Shown piece after piece: positions 4,794 through 25,900 of a stretch of 64,000 nt of DNA. Below the pieces are notes generated by a model. It was not told the DNA's origin and did no database searches. It worked only from the letters and a program-made list of their open reading frames with translations. A program made the translations under genes and the position numbers. The first letter of the stretch is position 1, and the number at the start of each line of letters is the position of its first letter. This DNA is from Chloroflexota bacterium (GTDB lineage Bacteria; Chloroflexota; Limnocylindria; Limnocylindrales; CSP1-4). The stretch spans positions 462-64,461 of the forward strand of contig PLOC01000003.1 of the NCBI GenBank assembly GCA_003141955.1, read 5' to 3'.

Positions 4794-5504
4794 ATGGCGA
4801 CCACGAAGAAGGGTGAGGACAACGGTCGAGCTGGCGGAGGAATCCCGGCTTCGAACGCGGGCGGCGCCTGGGGCCAGGGCCTGCCCGCCTACCCGGACTG
4901 GCTCCAGCCCTACCTGCCAGCGATGCACGACGGCTTCAACGGGTTCAACAGGTACGTCAGCGTGCCGGCCCTGAAAGCCGGCATGGGCAGGTTCGTGTCG
5001 AACCCGCTGACGGGCTACCTGATGATCCTGCGGACCCGCGGCCGTAGGAGCGGCGAGATGCGCGACGCCCCGCTCGGCTACATGATCGTCGGCGACGCTG
5101 TGTACGCCATGGCTGGCTTCGGTCGGGAGGCCCACTGGTTCAAGAACATCCAGGCGGACCCCCGGGTCGAGGTCATCCTCCCCGGTCGCGCCTTCTCGGG
5201 CACGGCCGAAGAGGTCACGGACACGGCCGAACGCCTGGCCGTCCTGCCTCCTCTTCTGCGCAGCATGGGCGGAGGCGCTGCGGCGATGGGCATGGGCAAT
5301 GTCTGGCAGATGACGCCTGAGGAGATCTCGGCCAGGTTCGACGGCCTGCCTCTGGTCCGGGTGCGGGCCACCGGCATCGCTGCGGGCCCCGAGGATCCGG
5401 GCGGCTGGTTCTGGGTCGTGCCCATCCTGTTCACGGGCTGGTGGCTGGTGCGATGGATACGAGGCCGCGGGCGCGCGCACAAAGCCCGGCGGGCGGACCG
5501 TTGA
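4794..5504 (+). CDS. deazaflavin (F420)-dependent nitroreductase family protein (DUF385/Ddn-like) with C-terminal hydrophobic tail
   Basis: Core region ...LRTRGRRSGEMRDAPLGYMIVGDAVYAMAGFGREAHWFKNIQADPRVEVILPGR... resembles the Ddn family. Start is chosen at ATG 4794 (MATTKKGEDNG) after the GAAAGGGG RBS; the ORF track extends to 4692. The C-terminus WFWVVPILFTGWWLVRWI is hydrophobic. Confidence 0.7.
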   Translation: MATTKKGEDNGRAGGGIPASNAGGAWGQGLPAYPDWLQPYLPAMHDGFNGFNRYVSVPALKAGMGRFVSNPLTGYLMILRTRGRRSGEMRDAPLGYMIVGDAVYAMAGFGREAHWFKNIQADPRVEVILPGRAFSGTAEEVTDTAERLAVLPPLLRSMGGGAAAMGMGNVWQMTPEEISARFDGLPLVRVRATGIAAGPEDPGGWFWVVPILFTGWWLVRWIRGRGRAHKARRADR

Positions 5505-6862
5505 CCGGGCCCGGCGGGACGTCTAGCGCGGACGGCGAGCCGTCGAGCCGACGCGGCCCCGCGCAACCCGGAGCCGGCGTCTTTGGCGCCGATCCGGCTC
5601 GTCGCCTCTTTGCCCGGGTCGCGTGCCTGGTCGTGGCTGTCATCGGCTGGGCCAACGTGGTGATCCTGGGGCGGGCGATGCTGTCGGCGTCGCCGCCCGA
5701 GGCTGGCTTCGACCTTCAACTCCTGCTCGACGCTGGCAAGCGCGTCGCAGCCGGCGGCTCACCGTACGACCCCAACGCGGTCGCGGCCGGGCTCCAGGCT
5801 CGCGACCTTTTCTTCTCATACCCGCCGGTCGTGGCGCAGATCTTGGCGCCGATCTCGGGTTTGCCGACGTGGCTCGTCCTGGCGGGCTGGTGCCTGGGCG
5901 CTGCAGCCGGGCTGGTCTTGATGGCTGCGCTCCTGCCGCGCTGGCCAATCGGCCGGCCCGCCCGGCCGATCGCCGACCTCTCTCTTGACACTGCGCTGCT
6001 CACACTCGCCGCGGCGCCGTTCTTCTTCCCGTTCGCGGTCGCGCTCCTGTTTGGCAACGTGGATGCCTGGTTCCCGTTCCTGTTCGGGGCGGTCGCGCTG
6101 ACCCTCGCGTCGGGTCGCGCCACTCCTTCGCGCCTGACGTCGGCGGCCGGAGGCGTGGCCCTTGCGGTCGCCTCTGCGGTGAAGCTGCACCCGGCCACGA
6201 TCGCCGTCTGGCTCGCTGCGGAACGACCGGCGCGGCCCGGCCTCCGTCGGCCCGGCCTCTTCGTCATCTGCGCGGCCGTCGCGGCGGGCGCGGCGATCCT
6301 GGCATTCAGCCTCGCCGTTGGCGGCGTTGGCCCCTGGCGCGAGTACATCGACTACCTTCGGGCGAGCGGAAATGCCGATCTGGCCTCGTCGGTGAACATC
6401 GGTCCGGCCAGCCAGCTTGCACTCCTGGCCGGCGACTCGAGTCTGGCTCGCCCGCTCGCGGTCGTTTTCGGCGTGATCGCGGTCGCCGCCACGCTCGCGT
6501 CCGCGAGGCTCTTGCGAGACCCGCTGGAGAGCTTCGGCTGGGCGGTCGTGGCCTCGCTTATCGTGCTGCCCGTGACCTGGTACCACTATCCCGTGGCGCT
6601 GGTACCGGTCGCGCTGGCGGCCTGGACTCGCAGCCGCGGAACGCCGCGCGGGCGCCGGGTCACCTGGGCGTTGATGGCGGCTCTTTTCGTGAGTGATGTC
6701 GCGATCGTGTTGCCGGTGGCGCTCTGGCTGGCCGTGGCGGTGCTGTTCGCCGCGGTTCGGTGGTCGCGCCCGCAACCGGGCCTCGAGCCTGCTCCGGACG
6801 CCGCACCGACGCCTCAGTCGGTTTCGGGCGAGGCGATCGCTCAGGTGCCGGTGCCCAGATGA
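5441..6862 (+). CDS. DUF2029 / GT87-family integral membrane glycosyltransferase (paralog a)
   Basis: Polytopic membrane protein with the DUF2029-type motif DLQLLLDAGKRVAAGGSPYD...LFFSYPP and a KLHP motif. Paralogous to 6859..7920 and 24896..25900. The start is uncertain: a TTG at 5501 overlaps the upstream stop as TTGA and is a plausible alternative. Confidence 0.7.
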   Translation: MAGAMDTRPRARAQSPAGGPLTGPGGTSSADGEPSSRRGPAQPGAGVFGADPARRLFARVACLVVAVIGWANVVILGRAMLSASPPEAGFDLQLLLDAGKRVAAGGSPYDPNAVAAGLQARDLFFSYPPVVAQILAPISGLPTWLVLAGWCLGAAAGLVLMAALLPRWPIGRPARPIADLSLDTALLTLAAAPFFFPFAVALLFGNVDAWFPFLFGAVALTLASGRATPSRLTSAAGGVALAVASAVKLHPATIAVWLAAERPARPGLRRPGLFVICAAVAAGAAILAFSLAVGGVGPWREYIDYLRASGNADLASSVNIGPASQLALLAGDSSLARPLAVVFGVIAVAATLASARLLRDPLESFGWAVVASLIVLPVTWYHYPVALVPVALAAWTRSRGTPRGRRVTWALMAALFVSDVAIVLPVALWLAVAVLFAAVRWSRPQPGLEPAPDAAPTPQSVSGEAIAQVPVPR

Positions 6863-18562: not shown

Positions 18563-19459
18563 ATGGCATCGCCAGCGTCCGGAGTTCGATCGGCGCCGGA
18601 GCCGCCCGAAGCCTCGCCGCGCGTCGCGTTCCAGGGAGAGCCCGGCGCCTTCTCGGAGGACGGCGTCCTTTCGGCGTTCCCGGCTCCGGAGGCCGTGGCG
18701 ATGCCGACGTGGCGGGCCGTCTTCGAGGCCGTGCACGAGGGATCGGTCGATGCCGGCGTCGTCCCAATCGAGCGGTCGGCCGGCGGCAGCGTGCGCGAGA
18801 TCTACGACCTGCTCTTCAAGTTCGACGAGATCCGGATCGCGGCCGAGGTGACGGTGCCGGTCCGGCTGGCCCTGCTGGCCCTGCCGGGCCAGACGCTCGA
18901 CCAGATCGAGCGCGTGTACAGCATCGCCCAGGCGCTGGACCAGGCCGACGAGTTCCTGCGCTCCCGGCCGTGGCAGGTCATGACCAGCTACAACACCGCC
19001 GGCGCAGCCAAGTCCATCGCCGAGAAGCGCGAGATGGGCGGAGCCGCCGTGGCCTCCGCTCGGGTCGCCCCGTTGTACGGCCTGGAGGTGCTCGCCGCCG
19101 ACATCCAGACCGGCGACGCGAACCGGACTCGCTTCGCCGTCGTCGCGCGCGATCCACTACCTGATTCGTGGTTCGTCCCGGCGGCGCTGGCGGGCCCGCT
19201 GAAGACGACCCTGGTCTGGGCGGTCCGCAACGTCCCGGGCAGCCTGTATCGATGCCTCGGCTGCTTCGCCGAGCGCAGGATCAACCTGTCGCGCCTGGAG
19301 TCCCGACCCAGCCGGGGCGTGCGCTGGGAATACGTCTTCTGGGCGGATATGGACGCGGACCCCGAGTCGCCGGACTGCGCCGCGGCGCTCGCGTCCCTGC
19401 TGCGCGAGGCCGTGATGGTCCGGGTGGCGGGGGTCTACCACCGAGCCGCCGAAGACTAG
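18563..19459 (+). CDS. pheA: prephenate dehydratase (PDT plus ACT domain)
   Basis: VAFQGEPGAFSE in the PDT domain, and ESRPSR in the C-terminal ACT domain. RBS GGAGGAG lies upstream. Confidence 0.85.
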   Translation: MASPASGVRSAPEPPEASPRVAFQGEPGAFSEDGVLSAFPAPEAVAMPTWRAVFEAVHEGSVDAGVVPIERSAGGSVREIYDLLFKFDEIRIAAEVTVPVRLALLALPGQTLDQIERVYSIAQALDQADEFLRSRPWQVMTSYNTAGAAKSIAEKREMGGAAVASARVAPLYGLEVLAADIQTGDANRTRFAVVARDPLPDSWFVPAALAGPLKTTLVWAVRNVPGSLYRCLGCFAERRINLSRLESRPSRGVRWEYVFWADMDADPESPDCAAALASLLREAVMVRVAGVYHRAAED

Positions 19460-19498
19460 CTGGGCCCAGGCCCGGCGCGCCGCGGGCCCTCGCCCGAG

Positions 19499-20227
19499 CT
19501 ATCGAGATCCGGCGGCTCTGTTCGCGCGGTCGCGCCGGCGGCGCTGCAGCGTGAAGATGTGGCGCACGATTCTGTCCTGCGCCCCTTCTGAGATCGACGT
19601 GAAGCGCATCGCGACCAGCGTCGTGGGGCCGACTCCGGGGCGCGGCAGCCTGGGTCTGCCGCCCGGTCCGAGCTCCGTCATCTCCTCGATGCGTATCACT
19701 TCGGCTTCCGCGGTGACGGCGCCGGGTCCGAGCGCGACGCGGATCTCGAGCTCGTCGCCCGCGGCGACCATCGCCTCGCCCGGTTGAACGACGAACTGGA
19801 TCCCGCCCGCGCTGATGTTGCGCGTCGTCCCCTTGCCGGTCAGGCCTGCGCTCCCGCTGTCGCTCTGGTTGGTGACCGTGTATGCGACCGGACACTGGGC
19901 GTCCAGACGGAGGTGATCTCGCCGCCGGACAAGTTGGAAGTCGCTCGGCCATTCGATCGAGAACAACCGCGAGCGGCTTGCGCCGAGGTGGCTCAGGAAA
20001 GTTGAGGCCGCCACCATCGCCGCCCCCTCGCGCCTGAAGGTCAAGTGCAGCGGTTGGTCCGGCCGCAGCCCCTGCAGGCCGGGATCCGGTCGAACCAGGC
20101 CCAGCCAGAGGCTCGTCGGCATCACGTTGACGACGACCGCGCGCAGGCCAACCACCTTCCCGTCGATTTCGGCCTCGACGAGAACTGGGTCGTGAACGGC
20201 CGGCTGTCCGTTTGTTTCGATCATCAT
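19499..20227 (-). CDS. PilZ-domain protein (candidate c-di-GMP receptor)
   Basis: RRRDHLR (RxxxR) followed by NISAGGIQF (D/NxSxxG), the two PilZ motifs. Transcribed divergently from the TasA-like locus. Confidence 0.65.
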   Translation of the reverse strand: MMIETNGQPAVHDPVLVEAEIDGKVVGLRAVVVNVMPTSLWLGLVRPDPGLQGLRPDQPLHLTFRREGAAMVAASTFLSHLGASRSRLFSIEWPSDFQLVRRRDHLRLDAQCPVAYTVTNQSDSGSAGLTGKGTTRNISAGGIQFVVQPGEAMVAAGDELEIRVALGPGAVTAEAEVIRIEEMTELGPGGRPRLPRPGVGPTTLVAMRFTSISEGAQDRIVRHIFTLQRRRRDRANRAAGSR

Positions 20228-20774
20228 CTCCGCGACCGCTCGTTCGGACGCGCAATGCTGGGATGGCGTGAACGCGCCGGTCCGGCGCCGGTAGCTCGCA
20301 GGTCGCAGGGCACGGACGACCTGACCGGAGGCAGTGGCCGCCGGGCCGAGGATACAGCCTGTCGGACTAAGAATCGGCCTCGGCGCCGGACGGCTTGAGA
20401 AGTCGGGCTTTCGGGGCCCGGCGGGCGCTCGAACCGGGTGTCCAACGTCATTCGGCCCCCGGCCCGGTACCCCTTTGGTCCGGTTCCTGCGCCCGCTTGT
20501 TGCATGAGCCCGAGCAGGACCGCCCGCCAGCCGATGGTCCGGGTGCGGGCCGGCAACGTAATCGGCGATTCACCTACTTAACTTGAGGTGACCAACGTAC
20601 CAGCAGTGCAAACCCGGAGGTCCGGTTGTGAGGTCCTCATTTCGGGGGTTTCATGGCCCCATCGCGTAGGGCCTACTCGGGGGAGCGGTGCCCAAGAGCA
20701 CCTTCGCGGTGGCCCTCGCCGCCCGGCCGACCGGATGTACCGGCCACCGGCCGTGACACGAAGGAAAATGGCGT

Positions 20775-21377
20775 ATGGAAAGCACGAAGGAGACCCACCG
20801 GCGCCGCAGGCGAGGCCTGCTCGCCCTGCTGATGGCAGGGACCGCACTCATCAGCGCCACTGGCGCAACCATGTCGCTGGCTCTGTTCACCGACAGCGTC
20901 TCCGCCAACGCCAACACGTTCACCACCGGTACGATCCACATCGGGATCAACCCGACGGCGACCATCCTGAGCGACGTAACGATGATGCCGGGCGACACCG
21001 TCAACGGGTCCGTCGTCATCACCAACACCGGAACCGCGCAGATGCGCTACGCCGTCTCCGGCTCCGCCACGAACACGGACGGCAAGGGCCTGGCCTCGCA
21101 GATCACGCTCACCATCCGCCAGCCGGATACCGCCGGCGGCACGACCTGCACCAACTTCACGGGCGTGCAGCTGTTCACAGGCGTGGTCCCGTACGCCGAA
21201 GGCAACCTGATCGGAACCTTCGCGACCCACCCGAACGGCGGCCGCACGTTGGGCGCGGGCCTCTTTGAGACCCTCTGCTTCCGGGCGGCGCTTCCGCTCT
21301 TGACACCGAACGCCTACGAGGGTGCATCGACCACGATGACCTTCACCTTCTATGCCGAGCAGACGGCGAACAACTAG
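20775..21377 (+). CDS. TasA/camelysin-like protein with SipW-cognate signal peptide
   Basis: N-terminus [49 protein letters not shown] matches the SipW-cognate pattern (A-x-F-x-D...N-T-F-x-x-G-T). The C-terminus TMTFTFYAEQTANN resembles the TasA end FSFEATQWN. Confidence 0.75.
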   Translation: MESTKETHRRRRRGLLALLMAGTALISATGATMSLALFTDSVSANANTFTTGTIHIGINPTATILSDVTMMPGDTVNGSVVITNTGTAQMRYAVSGSATNTDGKGLASQITLTIRQPDTAGGTTCTNFTGVQLFTGVVPYAEGNLIGTFATHPNGGRTLGAGLFETLCFRAALPLLTPNAYEGASTTMTFTFYAEQTANN

Positions 21378-21467
21378 TAGCGCTTCGGCTGCACCGACGC
21401 CGGCCGTGACTCGTCTTGACGGGTCACGGCCGGCGGTTCGGCACTCTGGAAGGACAAGCAGGGACCC

Positions 21468-22049
21468 ATGAGCACAGCACTGCGAGTGACGCGCTGGCTG
21501 CTCGATCTGGCCCTCATGGTGCTCGTGTTGTCGGTCCTCTCCCTCGTTCTTGCCGCCAACATCGGCCCCGGCGTCGGCCATCAACTGGTCGTCATCCGGG
21601 GCTCCTCGATGTCGCCGGCAATCCCGCTGGGAGCCGTCGTAGACATCACTCGCGTCCAGCCGCAAGACCTCAAGGTCGGCGACGTGGTCACCGTGAAGTC
21701 GCCAGGGGGCACGGTGTACACCCACCGCATCGACCGGATCGTCTCCCTGCCGGACGGGCTGTACATCGAAACCCAGGGCGACGCGGTTGGTCACCCCGAC
21801 ACGCCGCTCCAGCCGGTATCCGAAGTCGTCGGGCGGGTCACGTTCTCCCTGCCGTTCCTGGGGTTCCTGCTGTACATGCTGACCATCCCGACCGGCGTAC
21901 TAGCGATCTTCTCACTGGCCCTCACCATGCTGCTGTGCATCTGGCTGCTGGAGGACCTGGAGCAGCACGCCGTCAGGGTGGAACAGGAACCGTACGAGTG
22001 CGAGCTGGCGAGGACCCTGGACGCGTTGCGGATGGGGAGGCTCGGATGA
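21468..22049 (+). CDS. sipW: signal peptidase I, SipW (archaeal/ER) type
   Basis: [17 protein letters not shown]...[23 protein letters not shown]...TQGDAVG plus a C-terminal TM segment, collinear with B. subtilis SipW (SGSMEPTF, KGDVITF...AVTHRIVDI, TKGDNN). Confidence 0.85.
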
Positions 22050-22513
22050 GCCTGCGTCGGCTGCGTGTCGCCCTCATGCTGGTGCTGGTCCCGGCGACGC
22101 TCTTCGCGCAGTCGGGAACCAGCCTCGCCCTGTTCACCGAAGCCAAGGCTGCTGCCGCCAACACCTTCAGGACGGGCATCTGGGGCCCCAACGTGACGTT
22201 CGCCAGCAAGGCCGCGCCCAGCGGCGACGGCTACCTGTATGACACGATCAGCGGGACGGGCTTCCTGCCCGGCCTGAAGATCGTCATCATCGCCTACGAG
22301 TTCGGCACCGGCGGCTGGATCCCTCTCGGTGACTATGGCCTGAACCCGACCTCTGCCGCGGACGGGTCGTTTACCACCTCGTTCGAGGAGAACTGCATAG
22401 ACGGGGCCGGTGTCCAGCAGACGACCGATCTGCCGGTGACCGTCACGGCGACGGACGGCACGAACACCGCGACCGATGGCGGCACCATCGTCTGCAGCCT
22501 GTATGGACACTAG
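22046..22513 (+). CDS. small secreted protein with SipW-cognate signal peptide (paralog 1)
   Basis: [44 protein letters not shown]... ATG overlaps the sipW stop (ATGA). Two Cys residues (ENCIDGAG and TIVCS). Confidence 0.7.
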
Positions 22514-22552
22514 CAGGACCCTGGACGCATTGCGGATGCGCGAGAGGCTCGG

Positions 22553-23038
22553 ATGAGCGTGCGTCGCCTTCGCGCTCCTCTCGTCCTGACGCTCGCACTT
22601 GCGACGCTGCTGGCCCAGGCCGGATCCAGCCTGGCCCTGTTCACTGATTCGAAGGCCGCCGGCGCCAACACCTTCACGACGGGCACCTGGGGCGGACCCA
22701 CGGTAGCGTTCACCAGCTTCTACTCTGGCGGCGGCAGCCCGTACGGGTCGCAGTACAGCCTCACGGACACGATCAGCGGGGCGGGCTTCCTCCCCGGCCT
22801 CAAGCTCGTTATTGTCACCTACGAGTTCGGCACCAAGGTCCCGATCGCTCTTGGTGACTATGGTCTGAACCCGACCTCTCAAGCGGACGGGACGTTCACC
22901 ATCAGTTTCGTGGAGAACTGTGTCGACGGGGCTGGTATCCAGCAGAACACCGATCTGCCGGTGACCGTCACGGCGACGGACGGCACGAACAACGCGATCG
23001 GTGGGGGCACCATCGTATGCAGCAAGTGGACGTCGTAG
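22553..23038 (+). CDS. small secreted protein with SipW-cognate signal peptide (paralog 2)
   Basis: [44 protein letters not shown]...; roughly 70% identical to paralog 1. Confidence 0.7.
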
Positions 23039-23169
23039 TTCCTGTGCAGCCGCCCGTAGTCCGATAACAGGAAGGGTGACCCCTTCGGCCCTTGAGGTCG
23101 CCAGGCTGGACGTCCGCTGGGCGAATCGGTTGTAGGTAATCCATCCCGCGTGCGCGGTCGCAAAGTGAG

Positions 23170-24846
23170 GTGAGGGTGAGCAGCAACACTCTCTCGGTTG
23201 AGGCGGAGCAAGTCCGCCGACGCGCGGCCGATCTGGCCGGCGAGCTGTCCCGGGCGGCGCGTGGCTCGGCCACGATCGCCCAGGAGCGCGCGATCCTGCG
23301 CATGGTCGGAGTGGACGGCCTGGATCGAGCCGGCCATCCGCTGGCCGCGTCGATGGCCGAGCGGTACTGCAGCCCCGACCGGGACCGGCTGGCGAGTGGC
23401 GTGATCCTGCCGTTCGCCGTGGCCCTGCTCGAATACGACCTGTCCGCTCGAGACCTCGGGCTCGAGGTAGCGTCGGGCGCGGTCGACCTCGGGCTCGAGG
23501 CCGAGTTGCTGGACCGACCCGGGCGGCAGGCCGCCGCCGAGGCTCACGCGTCGCGGCTGCTGGCCGCGGCGCTGGCCCGATTCGACGCCAACCGGACTGC
23601 CGCCCGGGACATGCGCGACGTGCTCGGGCTGGCCGACGAGCCCTGGCTGGGAGTGGCCCTGCAGGCGGCCGAGGTGGGGCCCGCCGCCGAGGAGACGAAG
23701 GCGCTCGTCGGGGAGGGCGCCGACGTCGTCCAGGTTCGAATGCCGGCCAGCTGGGAATTCGCCGAGGCCCGGCGGCATGTGGGCCTCGAGACGCCCGGGC
23801 TCTTCGAGGTCGAGGGGCGGCCGGGCACGGGCGGCAGGAGATCCGGCGCTCGCGGGTCAGTCGGGCGGCTGACCGATCGGCGTCGCGGCGCCCGGGCGCG
23901 TTCGGCGCCCCCGCAGCGGTTCGAGCGCGACCTCGTCCCGGCCGGCAGCCAGCGGGGTCTGGCGGCGCTTCGGAAAGCGGCCGACGACGCGGCCGCGGAA
24001 CGAGGCTGCTACGCCAGCCTGATGACGGTCACCTCCGCCTTCGCCGCGCCCGAGCAGGCCGTCGTTGCCGCGTTCGAGCGGATCGACTTCGTGGAGGCCG
24101 ATCCGATTCGCGAGATCGTCGACGACAACGTCGATCCGGAGCGTGCGCTGGCCGACCACGCCTTTGCGCACCGGCTTCACGCACGGGCCGGTTGCCGGGT
24201 CGTGATGGGTCCCGGGCCGCTGGCGCTCGGCGCCGACGTGGCAAGCGGCATTCCTTCCGACGCCGCGACGCGGGCCGGGCGAGCCCTCGCACTTCAGGCC
24301 CTGGGCGTGGAGCTGGCTCTCGCCGACGGTCTCGCCGCGGACCGGCTGCTGCTGGGCGCGGTGCCCGACTGGGTCGCCGAGGACGGCAACGCGCGCGCCA
24401 TCCTCGTCCAGGCGTGGCTGCGGGGCCTGGTCTTTCCGGGCCACCGCCTGGTCGTCGGCGAGCCACGAGCCGACAATCAGCCGCCCGGTCGAACCACGGC
24501 TCTCGTGACGGCGCTCTCGGGGGCTGCGGCGTCACTCGTGGTCAGGGACAGTGCCGCAGGCAGCGTCTCCGAATCCGCCGCGGACCTGAGAGCGGCCGCT
24601 TCGACGGCCGCGGCCCTGCGGGCGGCGCTGGGCGACGGCATGTTGCACGGAGATGCGGCGGAACTGGCGACACGGACGCTGCGCGCCGCGAACGCGGCGC
24701 TGGAGCGTCTCGCCGGCGAGGGGTGGGGGAGTCTGCTCGGGCCCGCCGGACGTGGCACAGAGGCCGAACCATTCGGCCGCGGCGCGGTCGTCGAGCGCGC
24801 CACAGGCCCAACCTCGAGCTCCCGGCTGCTGGCCGCGCTGAAGTAG
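23170..24846 (+). CDS. hypothetical protein; its N-terminus resembles D-lysine 5,6-aminomutase alpha subunit (KamD family), with no KamE partner nearby
   Basis: Third-codon positions are strongly GC-biased, so the frame is real. N-terminal ...TIAQERAILRMVGVDGLD... resembles the KamD N-terminus as I recall it, not checked against a database. The remainder is Ala/Arg-rich. Confidence 0.35.
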   Translation: MRVSSNTLSVEAEQVRRRAADLAGELSRAARGSATIAQERAILRMVGVDGLDRAGHPLAASMAERYCSPDRDRLASGVILPFAVALLEYDLSARDLGLEVASGAVDLGLEAELLDRPGRQAAAEAHASRLLAAALARFDANRTAARDMRDVLGLADEPWLGVALQAAEVGPAAEETKALVGEGADVVQVRMPASWEFAEARRHVGLETPGLFEVEGRPGTGGRRSGARGSVGRLTDRRRGARARSAPPQRFERDLVPAGSQRGLAALRKAADDAAAERGCYASLMTVTSAFAAPEQAVVAAFERIDFVEADPIREIVDDNVDPERALADHAFAHRLHARAGCRVVMGPGPLALGADVASGIPSDAATRAGRALALQALGVELALADGLAADRLLLGAVPDWVAEDGNARAILVQAWLRGLVFPGHRLVVGEPRADNQPPGRTTALVTALSGAAASLVVRDSAAGSVSESAADLRAAASTAAALRAALGDGMLHGDAAELATRTLRAANAALERLAGEGWGSLLGPAGRGTEAEPFGRGAVVERATGPTSSSRLLAALK

Positions 24847-24895: not shown

Positions 24896-25900
24896 GTGGC
24901 TACCACGGTCGGCCCCGGTGCTAGGATGGCCGGCGGGACGGGAGCCAGCGCAGAGGAGAGACAACTGAGCAGTTCGAACGAGCGCACGGTCGCGCTCGGG
25001 GGGCGCCGCGTGCCAGTCGTCGTGGTCGCCGGTCTGGTCGCCCTCTTCGCCGTCTGGCTCGGCATCGTCTATTTCGCCGAACCGTGGGCCCAGTCTGCTC
25101 TGCCGTCCGGCATGGACGCTCGGTGCTATTGGGTGCCCAGCCTCTCGAACCCGTACTTGAACTCGACCTGGACCGAGCAGATCGCGTACCCGTACTCGCC
25201 GGCCTTCCTGCAGATCCTGCAGCCGATTCGGCTGCTGCCCTGGCAGCTCTTCATGGCCGTCTGGGCCGCGATCTTGATGGCGGCGATGGTCTACCTGACC
25301 GGCCCGCGGCTGATCCTCCTTGGCCTTGCCTTCTTTGGCCTGATGGAGATCTGGGGCGGCAACATCGAGCTGCTCATCGCGGTGGCGATCGTCCTCGGGT
25401 TCCGCTGGCCGGCGACGTGGGCGTTCGTCCTGCTCACCAAGATCACACCCGGCGTCGGCCTGCTCTGGTTCGCGGTCCGCCGCGAATGGCGCGCCCTGGC
25501 GATCGCTCTCGCGGCGACGGTCGCGGTCGTGGCGGTCTCGGCGGCGATCCAGCCGAACGCGTGGCTGGCGTGGCGCGACGTCCTCGTTTCGAATGCCGGC
25601 AAGAACGGGACCTGGGCCGCGGTCCCGGTTCCGTTCCTGGTGCGCCTTCCGCTCGCCGTCGTGCTGGTCGTGTGGGGCGCCCGCAGGAACCACCGCTGGA
25701 CGGTGCCCGTTTCGGCGATGCTCGCCCTGCCGGCGCTCTGGTACGGCGGCTTGAGCATCATGCTCGCCACGCTGCCGCTGCTGGGAGCGCGGACGTGGGG
25801 TGAGGTTCGCCAGGTGCTGAGTGGCGGTTGGTCGGAGCTTGCCGGCGAAATCGAGCACCTGCCCCGACCGTTCGGCCGCGGCTCCGCTCCCATAGGCTGA
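24896..25900 (+). CDS. DUF2029 / GT87-family integral membrane glycosyltransferase (paralog c)
   Basis: DARCYWVPSLSNPYLNSTWTEQIAYPYSPAFL and a TKITPG motif. GTG start; ATG 24926 is an alternative. Confidence 0.65.
   Translation: MATTVGPGARMAGGTGASAEERQLSSSNERTVALGGRRVPVVVVAGLVALFAVWLGIVYFAEPWAQSALPSGMDARCYWVPSLSNPYLNSTWTEQIAYPYSPAFLQILQPIRLLPWQLFMAVWAAILMAAMVYLTGPRLILLGLAFFGLMEIWGGNIELLIAVAIVLGFRWPATWAFVLLTKITPGVGLLWFAVRREWRALAIALAATVAVVAVSAAIQPNAWLAWRDVLVSNAGKNGTWAAVPVPFLVRLPLAVVLVVWGARRNHRWTVPVSAMLALPALWYGGLSIMLATLPLLGARTWGEVRQVLSGGWSELAGEIEHLPRPFGRGSAPIG

Follow-up and report, generated by a model that had tools for sequence, protein, structure and literature searches.

The window analyzed here is the whole 64-kb stretch of contig PLOC01000003.1, from a Chloroflexota bacterium of the Limnocylindria, and all coordinates are positions within it. 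Five open reading frames (ORFs) lie at 19499-23038 in both the ORF list and the raw sequence: a PilZ-domain gene on the minus strand, followed on the plus strand by genes for a TasA-like protein of 200 amino acids (aa), a SipW-type signal peptidase, and two small accessory proteins of 155 and 161 aa, to which we gave the working names ParA and ParB. A preliminary description of this DNA had placed a four-gene array at 20775-23038 with a divergent PilZ gene upstream, and all five ORFs are where it put them. From sequence, structure models and analogy, we think it probable that the four plus-strand genes are a cassette of the TasA/SipW extracellular-fiber kind, that ParA and ParB resemble TapA in function, and that the PilZ gene is unrelated. 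To our knowledge, work on TasA-type fibers has been confined to Bacillus and a small number of archaea. Here, the same kit of major subunit, dedicated SipW and strand-bearing accessory protein appears in an uncultured, abundant lineage of soil and peat.

A TasA-family protein and a SipW-type peptidase

The 200-aa protein (20775..21377, plus strand) belongs to the TasA/camelysin (Peptidase_M73) family, as had been proposed. It passes PF12389 (35.9 bits against a cut-off of 22.5; E 8.6e-9) and TIGR04088, the model of the SipW-cognate signal (22.6 bits against 19), and most of its 973 homologs carry a precomputed PF12389 match. Residues 1-36 (20775-20882) make up a SipW-type signal with predicted cleavage at SLA36/L37FTD, and about residues 37-53 (20883-20933) are predicted to be a donor strand. 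The cleavage motif S34-L35-A36 is invariant in the family, as are N47, F49 and G52 of the N-strand and a Cys pair, C125/C168. Both cysteines are invariant throughout the Chloroflexota/Actinomycetota clade of TasA-like proteins.

Resemblance to TasA had been suggested for both ends of the protein, and it is real at both. When the family profile was compared with the sequences in the PDB, TasA (8aur/5of1) ranked first, weakly (E 0.035), through two collinear stretches: an N-terminal FxxGT...PGD and a C-terminal yqG...FxFeAxQ. An AlphaFold 2 (AF2) model built from a 39-sequence alignment has a confident core at residues ~62-190, with a predicted local distance difference test (pLDDT) score of about 78-94 in 10-residue blocks. 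In this monomer, residues 21-61 are unstructured (pLDDT below 50), and residues ~62-200 form a jelly-roll core. In the comparison of the predicted structure with TasA that the preliminary description had called for, the sole Foldseek match in the PDB at E<=1e-3 is the cryo-electron microscopy structure of the TasA fiber (8aur_A; E 1.3e-4, prob 1.00), with template-modeling (TM) scores of 0.43/0.38, a likeness that is modest but specific. Weaker matches include FimG donor-strand pilins and the Saci_0406 thread subunit of Sulfolobus (7pnb). Sequence and model together lead us to predict that the 200-aa protein is the major fiber subunit.

The next gene (21468..22049, plus strand) encodes a 193-aa protein that passes TIGR02228, the archaeal/ER-type (endoplasmic reticulum) signal peptidase I model, at 74.9 bits against 51.85, and fails the Bacillus SipW equivalog NF046067 (56.7 bits against 190). 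It is a member of the SipW family, not the Bacillus ortholog. In a phmmer comparison with PDB sequences, its SSMSP, THRI and QGDA segments align with SGSMEP, VHRV and KGDN of human SEC11A/C. The candidate catalytic residues S47, H86 and D105 fall in these boxes, which points to a Ser/His rather than a Ser/Lys enzyme. Hydrophobic stretches are apparent from the sequence at both termini, at about residues 10-30 and 127-160. The earlier identification of this gene as an ER/archaeal-type SipW is thus borne out, and its alignments show a SipW-type signal peptidase I with Ser/His/Asp. For comparison among relatives, we fetched 80 related loci of Chloroflexota and Actinomycetota, consisting of 13 syntenic cassette-bearing loci and 67 other TasA-SipW loci. 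Across these 80 loci (phmmer, six-frame ORFs), sipW lies directly 3' of the tasA-like gene nearly everywhere that the contig permits.

How widespread is this family? Among 185,579 species genomes, 304 candidate stretches encode a relative of the 200-aa protein. These relatives come overwhelmingly from Chloroflexota metagenome-assembled genomes (Candidatus Limnocylindrales/Limnocylindria, Dehalococcoidia and Thermomicrobiales), with some from Actinomycetota; the nearest, at 92%, is from 'Chloroflexi bacterium fen_1024'. An actinobacterial host, implied earlier by the phrase 'F420/MMPL-bearing', is therefore mistaken: the host, represented by a metagenome-assembled genome from peat soil, belongs to the Limnocylindria within the Chloroflexota. 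Our literature search found no publication joining Limnocylindr* with TasA. However, the novelty first claimed for this lineage was overstated, since PF12389 homologs have already been listed for Actinobacteriota and Chloroflexota by Wang et al. 2022 (PMC9245690), and database names exist, namely 'TasA family protein' at NCBI for one relative and 'SipW-like signal peptide' at JGI for many. The locus is an uncharacterized member of the known TasA/SipW family, and only its modular accessory proteins, leader and hairpin go beyond existing annotation. With Chloroflexota already present in the literature and in NCBI annotation, current understanding is not overturned.

The accessory proteins ParA and ParB

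ParA (155 aa; 22046..22513, plus strand) consists of a SipW-type signal (residues 1-28), a TasA-like N-strand and a single immunoglobulin-like (Ig-like) domain containing C117/C150. ParB (161 aa; 22553..23038, plus strand) is chimeric, with signal and N-strand in residues 1-46 and an Ig-like body in residues 48-161 that contains C123/C156; the junction lies near 22691. The Cys pair noted earlier in each small protein is present and invariant within the respective family. The predicted mature lengths are 127-133 aa, and proteins this small could serve as a minimal model for TapA-like initiators or caps.

The preliminary description also held that all three non-peptidase proteins share one signal pattern, SLALFT[DE]...ANTF, and a six-frame scan agrees. 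In the translated 64-kb window there are exactly three instances of the motif [S/T]SLALFT[D/E]...ANTF..G, all of them in the operon, and it is therefore no chance pattern. ParB passes TIGR04088 (20.6 bits against 19), whereas ParA has no match to this model at E<=1 even though its SipW-type motif is present. The SLA motif and the residues equivalent to N47, F49 and G52 of the TasA-like protein are kept in both ParA and ParB. Mature proteins are predicted to begin with L37 in the TasA-like protein and with L29 in ParA and ParB, and the predicted mature N-terminus of ParB is identical to that of the TasA-like protein at 14 of 17 positions. ParB and the major subunit thus have a common strand pattern of the same length, L-F-T-D-S-x-x-A-x-A-N-T-F-x-T-G-T.

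The bodies behind this strand are of a different kind. In the predicted ParB model, a complete seven-strand Ig-like sandwich follows an unstructured N-terminus, and 93 of the 161 residues have a pLDDT of >= 90, nearly all of them within residues 48-158. A Foldseek search with this model gave no match at E<=1e-3, with adhesin stalk domains among the top-listed structures. TapA appears in neither of the two match lists, and neither sequence homology nor specific structural homology of ParA or ParB to TapA was detected. The Ig-like domain belongs to no Pfam family. Among 1.84 billion proteins it occurs in 34 representative clusters at E<=1e-3 and is almost always C-terminal. With hhalign, the likeness of the accessory families to the TasA-like family (E 2e-10 and 5e-10) is restricted to the signal and N-strand. 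We rejected a TasA-like fold for the bodies of ParA and ParB, and for the 230-aa protein of relatives described below, on the ground that the hhalign likeness ends after the N-strand.

Are the two small genes tandem duplicates, as first described? At the level of DNA they align, with 86% column identity over the ParA and ParB regions. The alignment includes a copy of the 3' end of sipW, ~40 nucleotides (nt) long, before ParB: the last ~38 nt of sipW (22011-22048) recur on the plus strand at 22515..22555, across the ParA-ParB spacer and the start of ParB. The ATGA at 22553 belongs to this copy and is no stop/start overlap, because the ParA stop (22513) lies 39 nt earlier. ATGA overlaps had been said to link genes 2, 3 and 4; the one between sipW and ParA (22046-22049) stands, but ParA and ParB are separated by a 39-nt gap.

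At the level of protein modules, a simple recent duplication of ParA into ParB is rejected. The two bodies are 69% identical to each other, yet each is closer to the C-terminal domain of a different, longer protein: the ParA body is 82% identical to that of a protein of the P0138 type (253 aa, ending SQYxH), and the ParB body 79% identical to that of proteins of the P0125 type (259 aa, ending SKWTP; the 'SKWT' subtype). Residues 1-46 of ParB are 67% identical to ParA but 89% identical to a 230-aa protein of relatives, P0160, to whose N-terminus they are orthologous. These identities mark ParA and ParB as mosaics in which a common signal and N-strand module precedes Ig-like domains that belong to two older subtypes.

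Comparison with the nearest species (locus L007) locates the exchange. Window positions 20200-22691 are collinear with L007 7427-9930 at 88.7% identity, so the spacer derived from sipW is also present in that species. Collinearity is lost at 22691, right after the ParB signal and N-strand, and regained at 23167, at the start of an aminomutase-like gene. L007 has a ParA ortholog, and at the position of ParB it carries a third gene of ~230 aa ('GTWAFYLHNNPTPPTANTTAQ...', the 'YLHNNPTPP' type), as do 15 other loci. The break points indicate that the ParB gene replaced the body of this conserved third gene. When window positions 22553-23166 are set against L007 9792-10573, the 230-aa body is gone, and the signal and N-strand remain, joined to the Ig-like domain. 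The 230-aa proteins P0160-P0163 have a weak match to the Pfam family PepX_C (19.5 bits, under the cut-off).

We tentatively suggest, as an idea that is more likely wrong than right, that the N-terminal ~46 residues of accessory proteins may be a portable fiber-docking tag whose bodies are swapped by recombination in Limnocylindria and related Chloroflexota and Actinomycetota. The bodies found behind it are a 230-aa 'YLHNNPTPP' beta-protein in most relatives, a single Ig-like domain of two subtypes in the window, an FN3-like plus Ig-like arrangement, and a body of ~1500 aa in locus L048; further SipW-signal genes have bodies of 172 to about 1500 residues. If the suggestion is right, the window genome would show a replacement in progress, from the third-gene body to an Ig-like domain, and the system would be a TasA-type fiber with interchangeable end pieces, with a leader and a hairpin controlling the cassette.

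Two loci carry related ORFs. In L048, an ORF of about 1500 aa begins at about 9327, 3' of sipW, with a SipW-type signal followed by 'GANGFVVGTW'; it may encode a giant SipW-dependent adhesin with the same N-terminal tag. In L066 (CAWBLU010000003.1), positions 5266-6653 hold the 259-aa P0126 and a weak TasA-like ORF, between pheA and the PilZ gene, so that PilZ separates them from the cassette. P0126 ends in the same Ig-like domain and begins with a variant signal, 'VSAYWTG'.

Proposed assembly as a fiber

How might these proteins work together? In each of the three substrates, SipW would cut behind SLA and so expose an N-terminal L-F-T-D/E. This would place Phe at P2', the position it has in the cleavage of TasA by SipW (PMC10269814). 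By analogy, the freed N-strand of the 200-aa protein would then slot into the beta-sandwich of the subunit that follows and so build the fiber by donor-strand exchange. In TasA, residues 28-38 are the donor strand that completes the next subunit; TapA has a similar N-terminus, for which complementation of TasA is predicted (PMC9674648). ParA and ParB have the same strand before an already complete Ig-like domain, which is probably disulfide-bonded, judging by the conserved Cys pair. They could donate a strand but probably could not accept one, and as donors only they would be placed at one end of the fiber. There they would nucleate or cap it in the manner of TapA, and might also present an adhesive Ig-like domain as its tip. 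Downstream of the major-subunit gene, the hairpin may keep the mRNA of that gene in excess over that of sipW and the accessory genes.

A close known counterpart is the tapA-sipW-tasA operon of B. subtilis. Both loci have a dedicated SipW-type peptidase adjoining a PF12389 protein. The TasA-like protein shares with TasA a SipW-cognate signal with Phe at P2', a following '[AN]TFxxGT' (ATFASGT in TasA) and a conserved C-terminal 'FxFxAxQ' strand. TapA has a SipW signal, an unstructured donated N-terminus, a complete Ig fold and a C92-C188 disulfide, and the tapA stop codon overlaps the sipW start (PMC10151520). The accessory proteins resemble it in their SipW signal, TasA-like N-terminus, complete Ig-type fold and Cys pair, and ParA also in a stop/start overlap with sipW. 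An accessory or minor-subunit role for the small proteins, as suggested earlier, agrees with mature N-termini that match the TasA-like protein, a complete Ig fold, and a Cys pair as in TapA. By analogy, we infer that ParA and ParB work like TapA without being its homologs. Unlike in B. subtilis, the gene order here is tasA-sipW-accessory. The major subunit, 70 residues shorter than TasA, contains an invariant Cys pair. The accessory genes number two, and their products are far smaller than TapA, each with one Ig-like domain. A SinR-type regulator is not evident; a conserved leader and an intercistronic hairpin are present instead, and the host is a member of the Chloroflexota.

Other systems offer partial parallels. 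The B. cereus locus sipW-calY1-bc1280-calY2 also combines SipW with more than one SipW-dependent matrix protein, one of which has been proposed to take the TapA role (PMC10151520). However, the extra substrate there is a second TasA paralog, whereas the Ig-like bodies here are unrelated to TasA by hhalign. Archaeal filaments of the TasA superfamily (the AbpA/AbpB bundling pili of Pyrobaculum, AbpX, Tafi and the Saci_0406 threads) are built from jelly-roll or beta-sandwich subunits by donor-strand complementation, as is predicted here, and the minor protein AbpB has been proposed to supply the first strand and to display distal adhesive beta domains (PMC9245690). These differ in that the window protein matches bacterial TasA at the Pfam level, while AbpA-type relations need profile-profile or structural searches, and in that a dedicated SipW takes the place of a peptidase with ten transmembrane segments (AbpX) or a generic one. 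The terminator and adaptor subunits of chaperone-usher pili (PapH, FimF/FimG) are likewise minor subunits defined by donating or accepting a strand, but no chaperone, usher or outer-membrane machinery is present here, and the likeness is one of analogy only.

Several observations weigh against a TasA-type fiber with TapA-like accessory proteins. The PF12389 alignment is limited to residues 34-98 of the TasA-like protein, and its likeness to TasA is modest by both the TM score (0.43) and the profile comparison (E 0.035). The mature protein has 164 aa compared with 234 aa in TasA, whose C-terminal extension it lacks. The accessory proteins are not obligatory, since a third SipW-signal gene is recognizable in about a third of related loci (about 22 of 65 in a regex survey of <=3 kb downstream of sipW). 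Finally, conservation after the cleavage site could reflect substrate recognition by SipW alone, because TIGR04088 itself extends past that site.

This last point leads to a competing explanation, in which ParA and ParB are free-standing surface or matrix proteins secreted through SipW, such as small adhesins, that are not attached to a fiber and resemble the major subunit at the N-terminus for the sake of SipW recognition. The Ig-like domain does occur mostly at the C-terminus of longer secreted proteins, some with another signal ('SAYWT' in P0125/P0126); the closest folds are adhesin stalk repeats; and bodies are freely exchanged behind the same N-module. Nevertheless, we regard this explanation as rather unlikely. 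The identity of ParB with the major subunit over 14 of 17 positions exceeds what a cleavage site needs, the same segment of TapA complements TasA in B. subtilis (PMC10151520, PMC9674648), and the genes are translationally coupled to sipW within the cassette. Alternatively, the 200-aa protein itself could be no fiber subunit but a monomeric secreted or surface protein of the camelysin or spore-coat type, for example a protease or coat component. The names suggest as much, with PF12389 called 'Camelysin metallo-endopeptidase' in Pfam and some relatives called 'spore coat-associated protein N' or 'camelysin-like metallo-endopeptidase' at JGI, but these names stem from TasA and CalY, which are now known to be fiber subunits (PMC9674648). 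No HExxH metalloprotease motif is visible in the sequence of the 200-aa protein, and its top structural match is the fiber form of TasA. Conservation peaks at the N-strand and the C-terminal strand; in Bacillaceae TasA-like proteins, the most conserved residues lie in the protomer interface (Roske et al., PMC10151520). We consider a monomeric role very improbable and continue to favor a fiber with TapA-like accessory proteins.

The PilZ gene, the leader and the genomic setting

The divergent gene upstream (19499..20227, minus strand) encodes a 242-aa protein with a YcgR-like two-domain layout. It passes PF07238 over residues 102-225 (44.7 bits against 22.5; E 1.8e-11) and fails the YcgR equivalog NF047947 (18.7 bits against 400). 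Its R103-x-x-x-R107 and N137-I-S-A-G-G142 motifs, the RxxxR and NxSxGG recognized in the preliminary description, are intact, and 22 orthologs show no variation at R103 and R107 and hardly any at N137. Domain and motifs predict a receptor for cyclic di-GMP (c-di-GMP).

Does this receptor control the fiber? The preliminary description proposed that PilZ and the cassette form one c-di-GMP-responsive fiber or adhesin system. In such a system, PilZ would bind c-di-GMP and govern the secretion of the fiber, its expression, or its processing, perhaps by way of the cytoplasmic tail of SipW. The gene does lie divergently 547 nt from the tasA-like gene, with conserved c-di-GMP-binding motifs; many PilZ orthologs and TasA-like matches share contigs; and c-di-GMP enzymes are reported near some loci in a preprint on AbpX that maps the TasA superfamily (bioRxiv 10.64898/2026.01.04.697558). 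A PilZ ortholog accompanies 8 of the 13 syntenic cassette-bearing loci (L007-L010, L014, L020, L027 and L066). However, it is missing from the other 5 (L011, L012, L013, L021 and L023) and is adjacent to none of the other 67 TasA-SipW loci. We also sampled eight PilZ orthologs on long contigs, a sample biased toward contigs not already known to carry TasA. One of the eight (L092) has the cassette, and seven (L089, L090, L091 and L093-L096) show the order pheA-PilZ-aminomutase-like with no TasA/SipW within 5 kb. All three states of the slot therefore occur (both, cassette only in 5, PilZ only in 7), so that PilZ and the cassette vary independently at one conserved position, and the adjacency of PilZ, sipW and its substrates is largely not conserved among relatives. 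Where adjacency does hold, in close relatives, it is expected from shared ancestry, because the pheA...aminomutase-like neighborhood is syntenic throughout. The leader of the cassette is kept regardless of PilZ, and in a crude regex scan the window ORFs contained neither a GGDEF nor an EAL motif. We judge joint c-di-GMP control quite unlikely. Seven genomes hold the PilZ slot without the cassette, which is therefore acquired or lost as one block at a fixed site, with PilZ on one side and the aminomutase-like gene on the other. Together with its own leader it behaves as a unit that is either present or absent, and PilZ, most likely unrelated to it, resides in the same slot. The locus clearly illustrates that regulation cannot be concluded from a signaling gene lying nearby in a few close relatives. 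A metagenome scan with the PilZ protein found two short loci only.

The leader is a conserved non-coding segment of ~180 nt (20597..20774, plus strand) directly 5' of the tasA-like gene, defined by an alignment of 9-15 relatives. Its blocks are GTACC, GAGGTCCGGTTG (20617-20628), GGGTTTCATG, CGGTGC...GCA and CCGGAG, and those invariant across relatives are GTACC, GAGGTCCNGTTG, GGGTTTSATG, CGGTGC..GCA and CCGGAG. An nhmmer profile of the leader matches upstream of the tasA-like gene in every cassette-bearing Limnocylindria locus, with or without PilZ, and has no match in cassette-less loci. RNAalifold on 9 and 15 leader sequences gave weak energies, positive covariation terms and no covariation support. 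The leader could be a promoter/operator or a sequence-specific 5' untranslated region. No Rfam family matched 19400-23300 at E<=1, and we therefore rejected the idea that the 547-nt gap between the PilZ and tasA-like genes contains a riboswitch for c-di-GMP or any other known RNA. L091 retains one 12-nt leader motif on the minus strand (4987-4998), in the interval from PilZ to the aminomutase-like gene, where it may be a remnant or a chance match.

Between the tasA-like stop and the sipW start lies a conserved stem-loop (21394..21441, plus strand). The surrounding 96 nt (21375-21470) fold at -53.6 kcal/mol (z -4.9), and 0 of 200 shuffles were equally stable. The stem-loop is kept in 12 loci, with 20 pairs, 7 of which show compensatory double changes; no U-tract follows it. 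It could set the ratio of the major-subunit transcript to the peptidase and accessory transcripts. No sigma-70 promoters or intrinsic terminators were found beyond shuffle expectation.

The wider neighborhood is syntenic as a whole in the Limnocylindria clade, with ilvBNC-leuB-leuA-pheA upstream and the aminomutase-like gene, a GT87-like gene and upp downstream. A prophage or mobile-element origin was rejected because these flanks are housekeeping genes and GC content is uniformly high across the window (0.65-0.74). The aminomutase-like gene (23170-24846; 558 residues) matches the alpha-subunit TIM barrel of D-lysine 5,6-aminomutase, best over residues 13-189, in two matched stretches with 98 bits. 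It is followed by a gene for a GT87-like membrane glycosyltransferase (24896-25900), and this pair adjoins the cassette slot in all relatives. The identical locus is found on six metagenome contigs, including GCA_003154815.1 (PMEU01000147.1) and a 'WOOD18' record.

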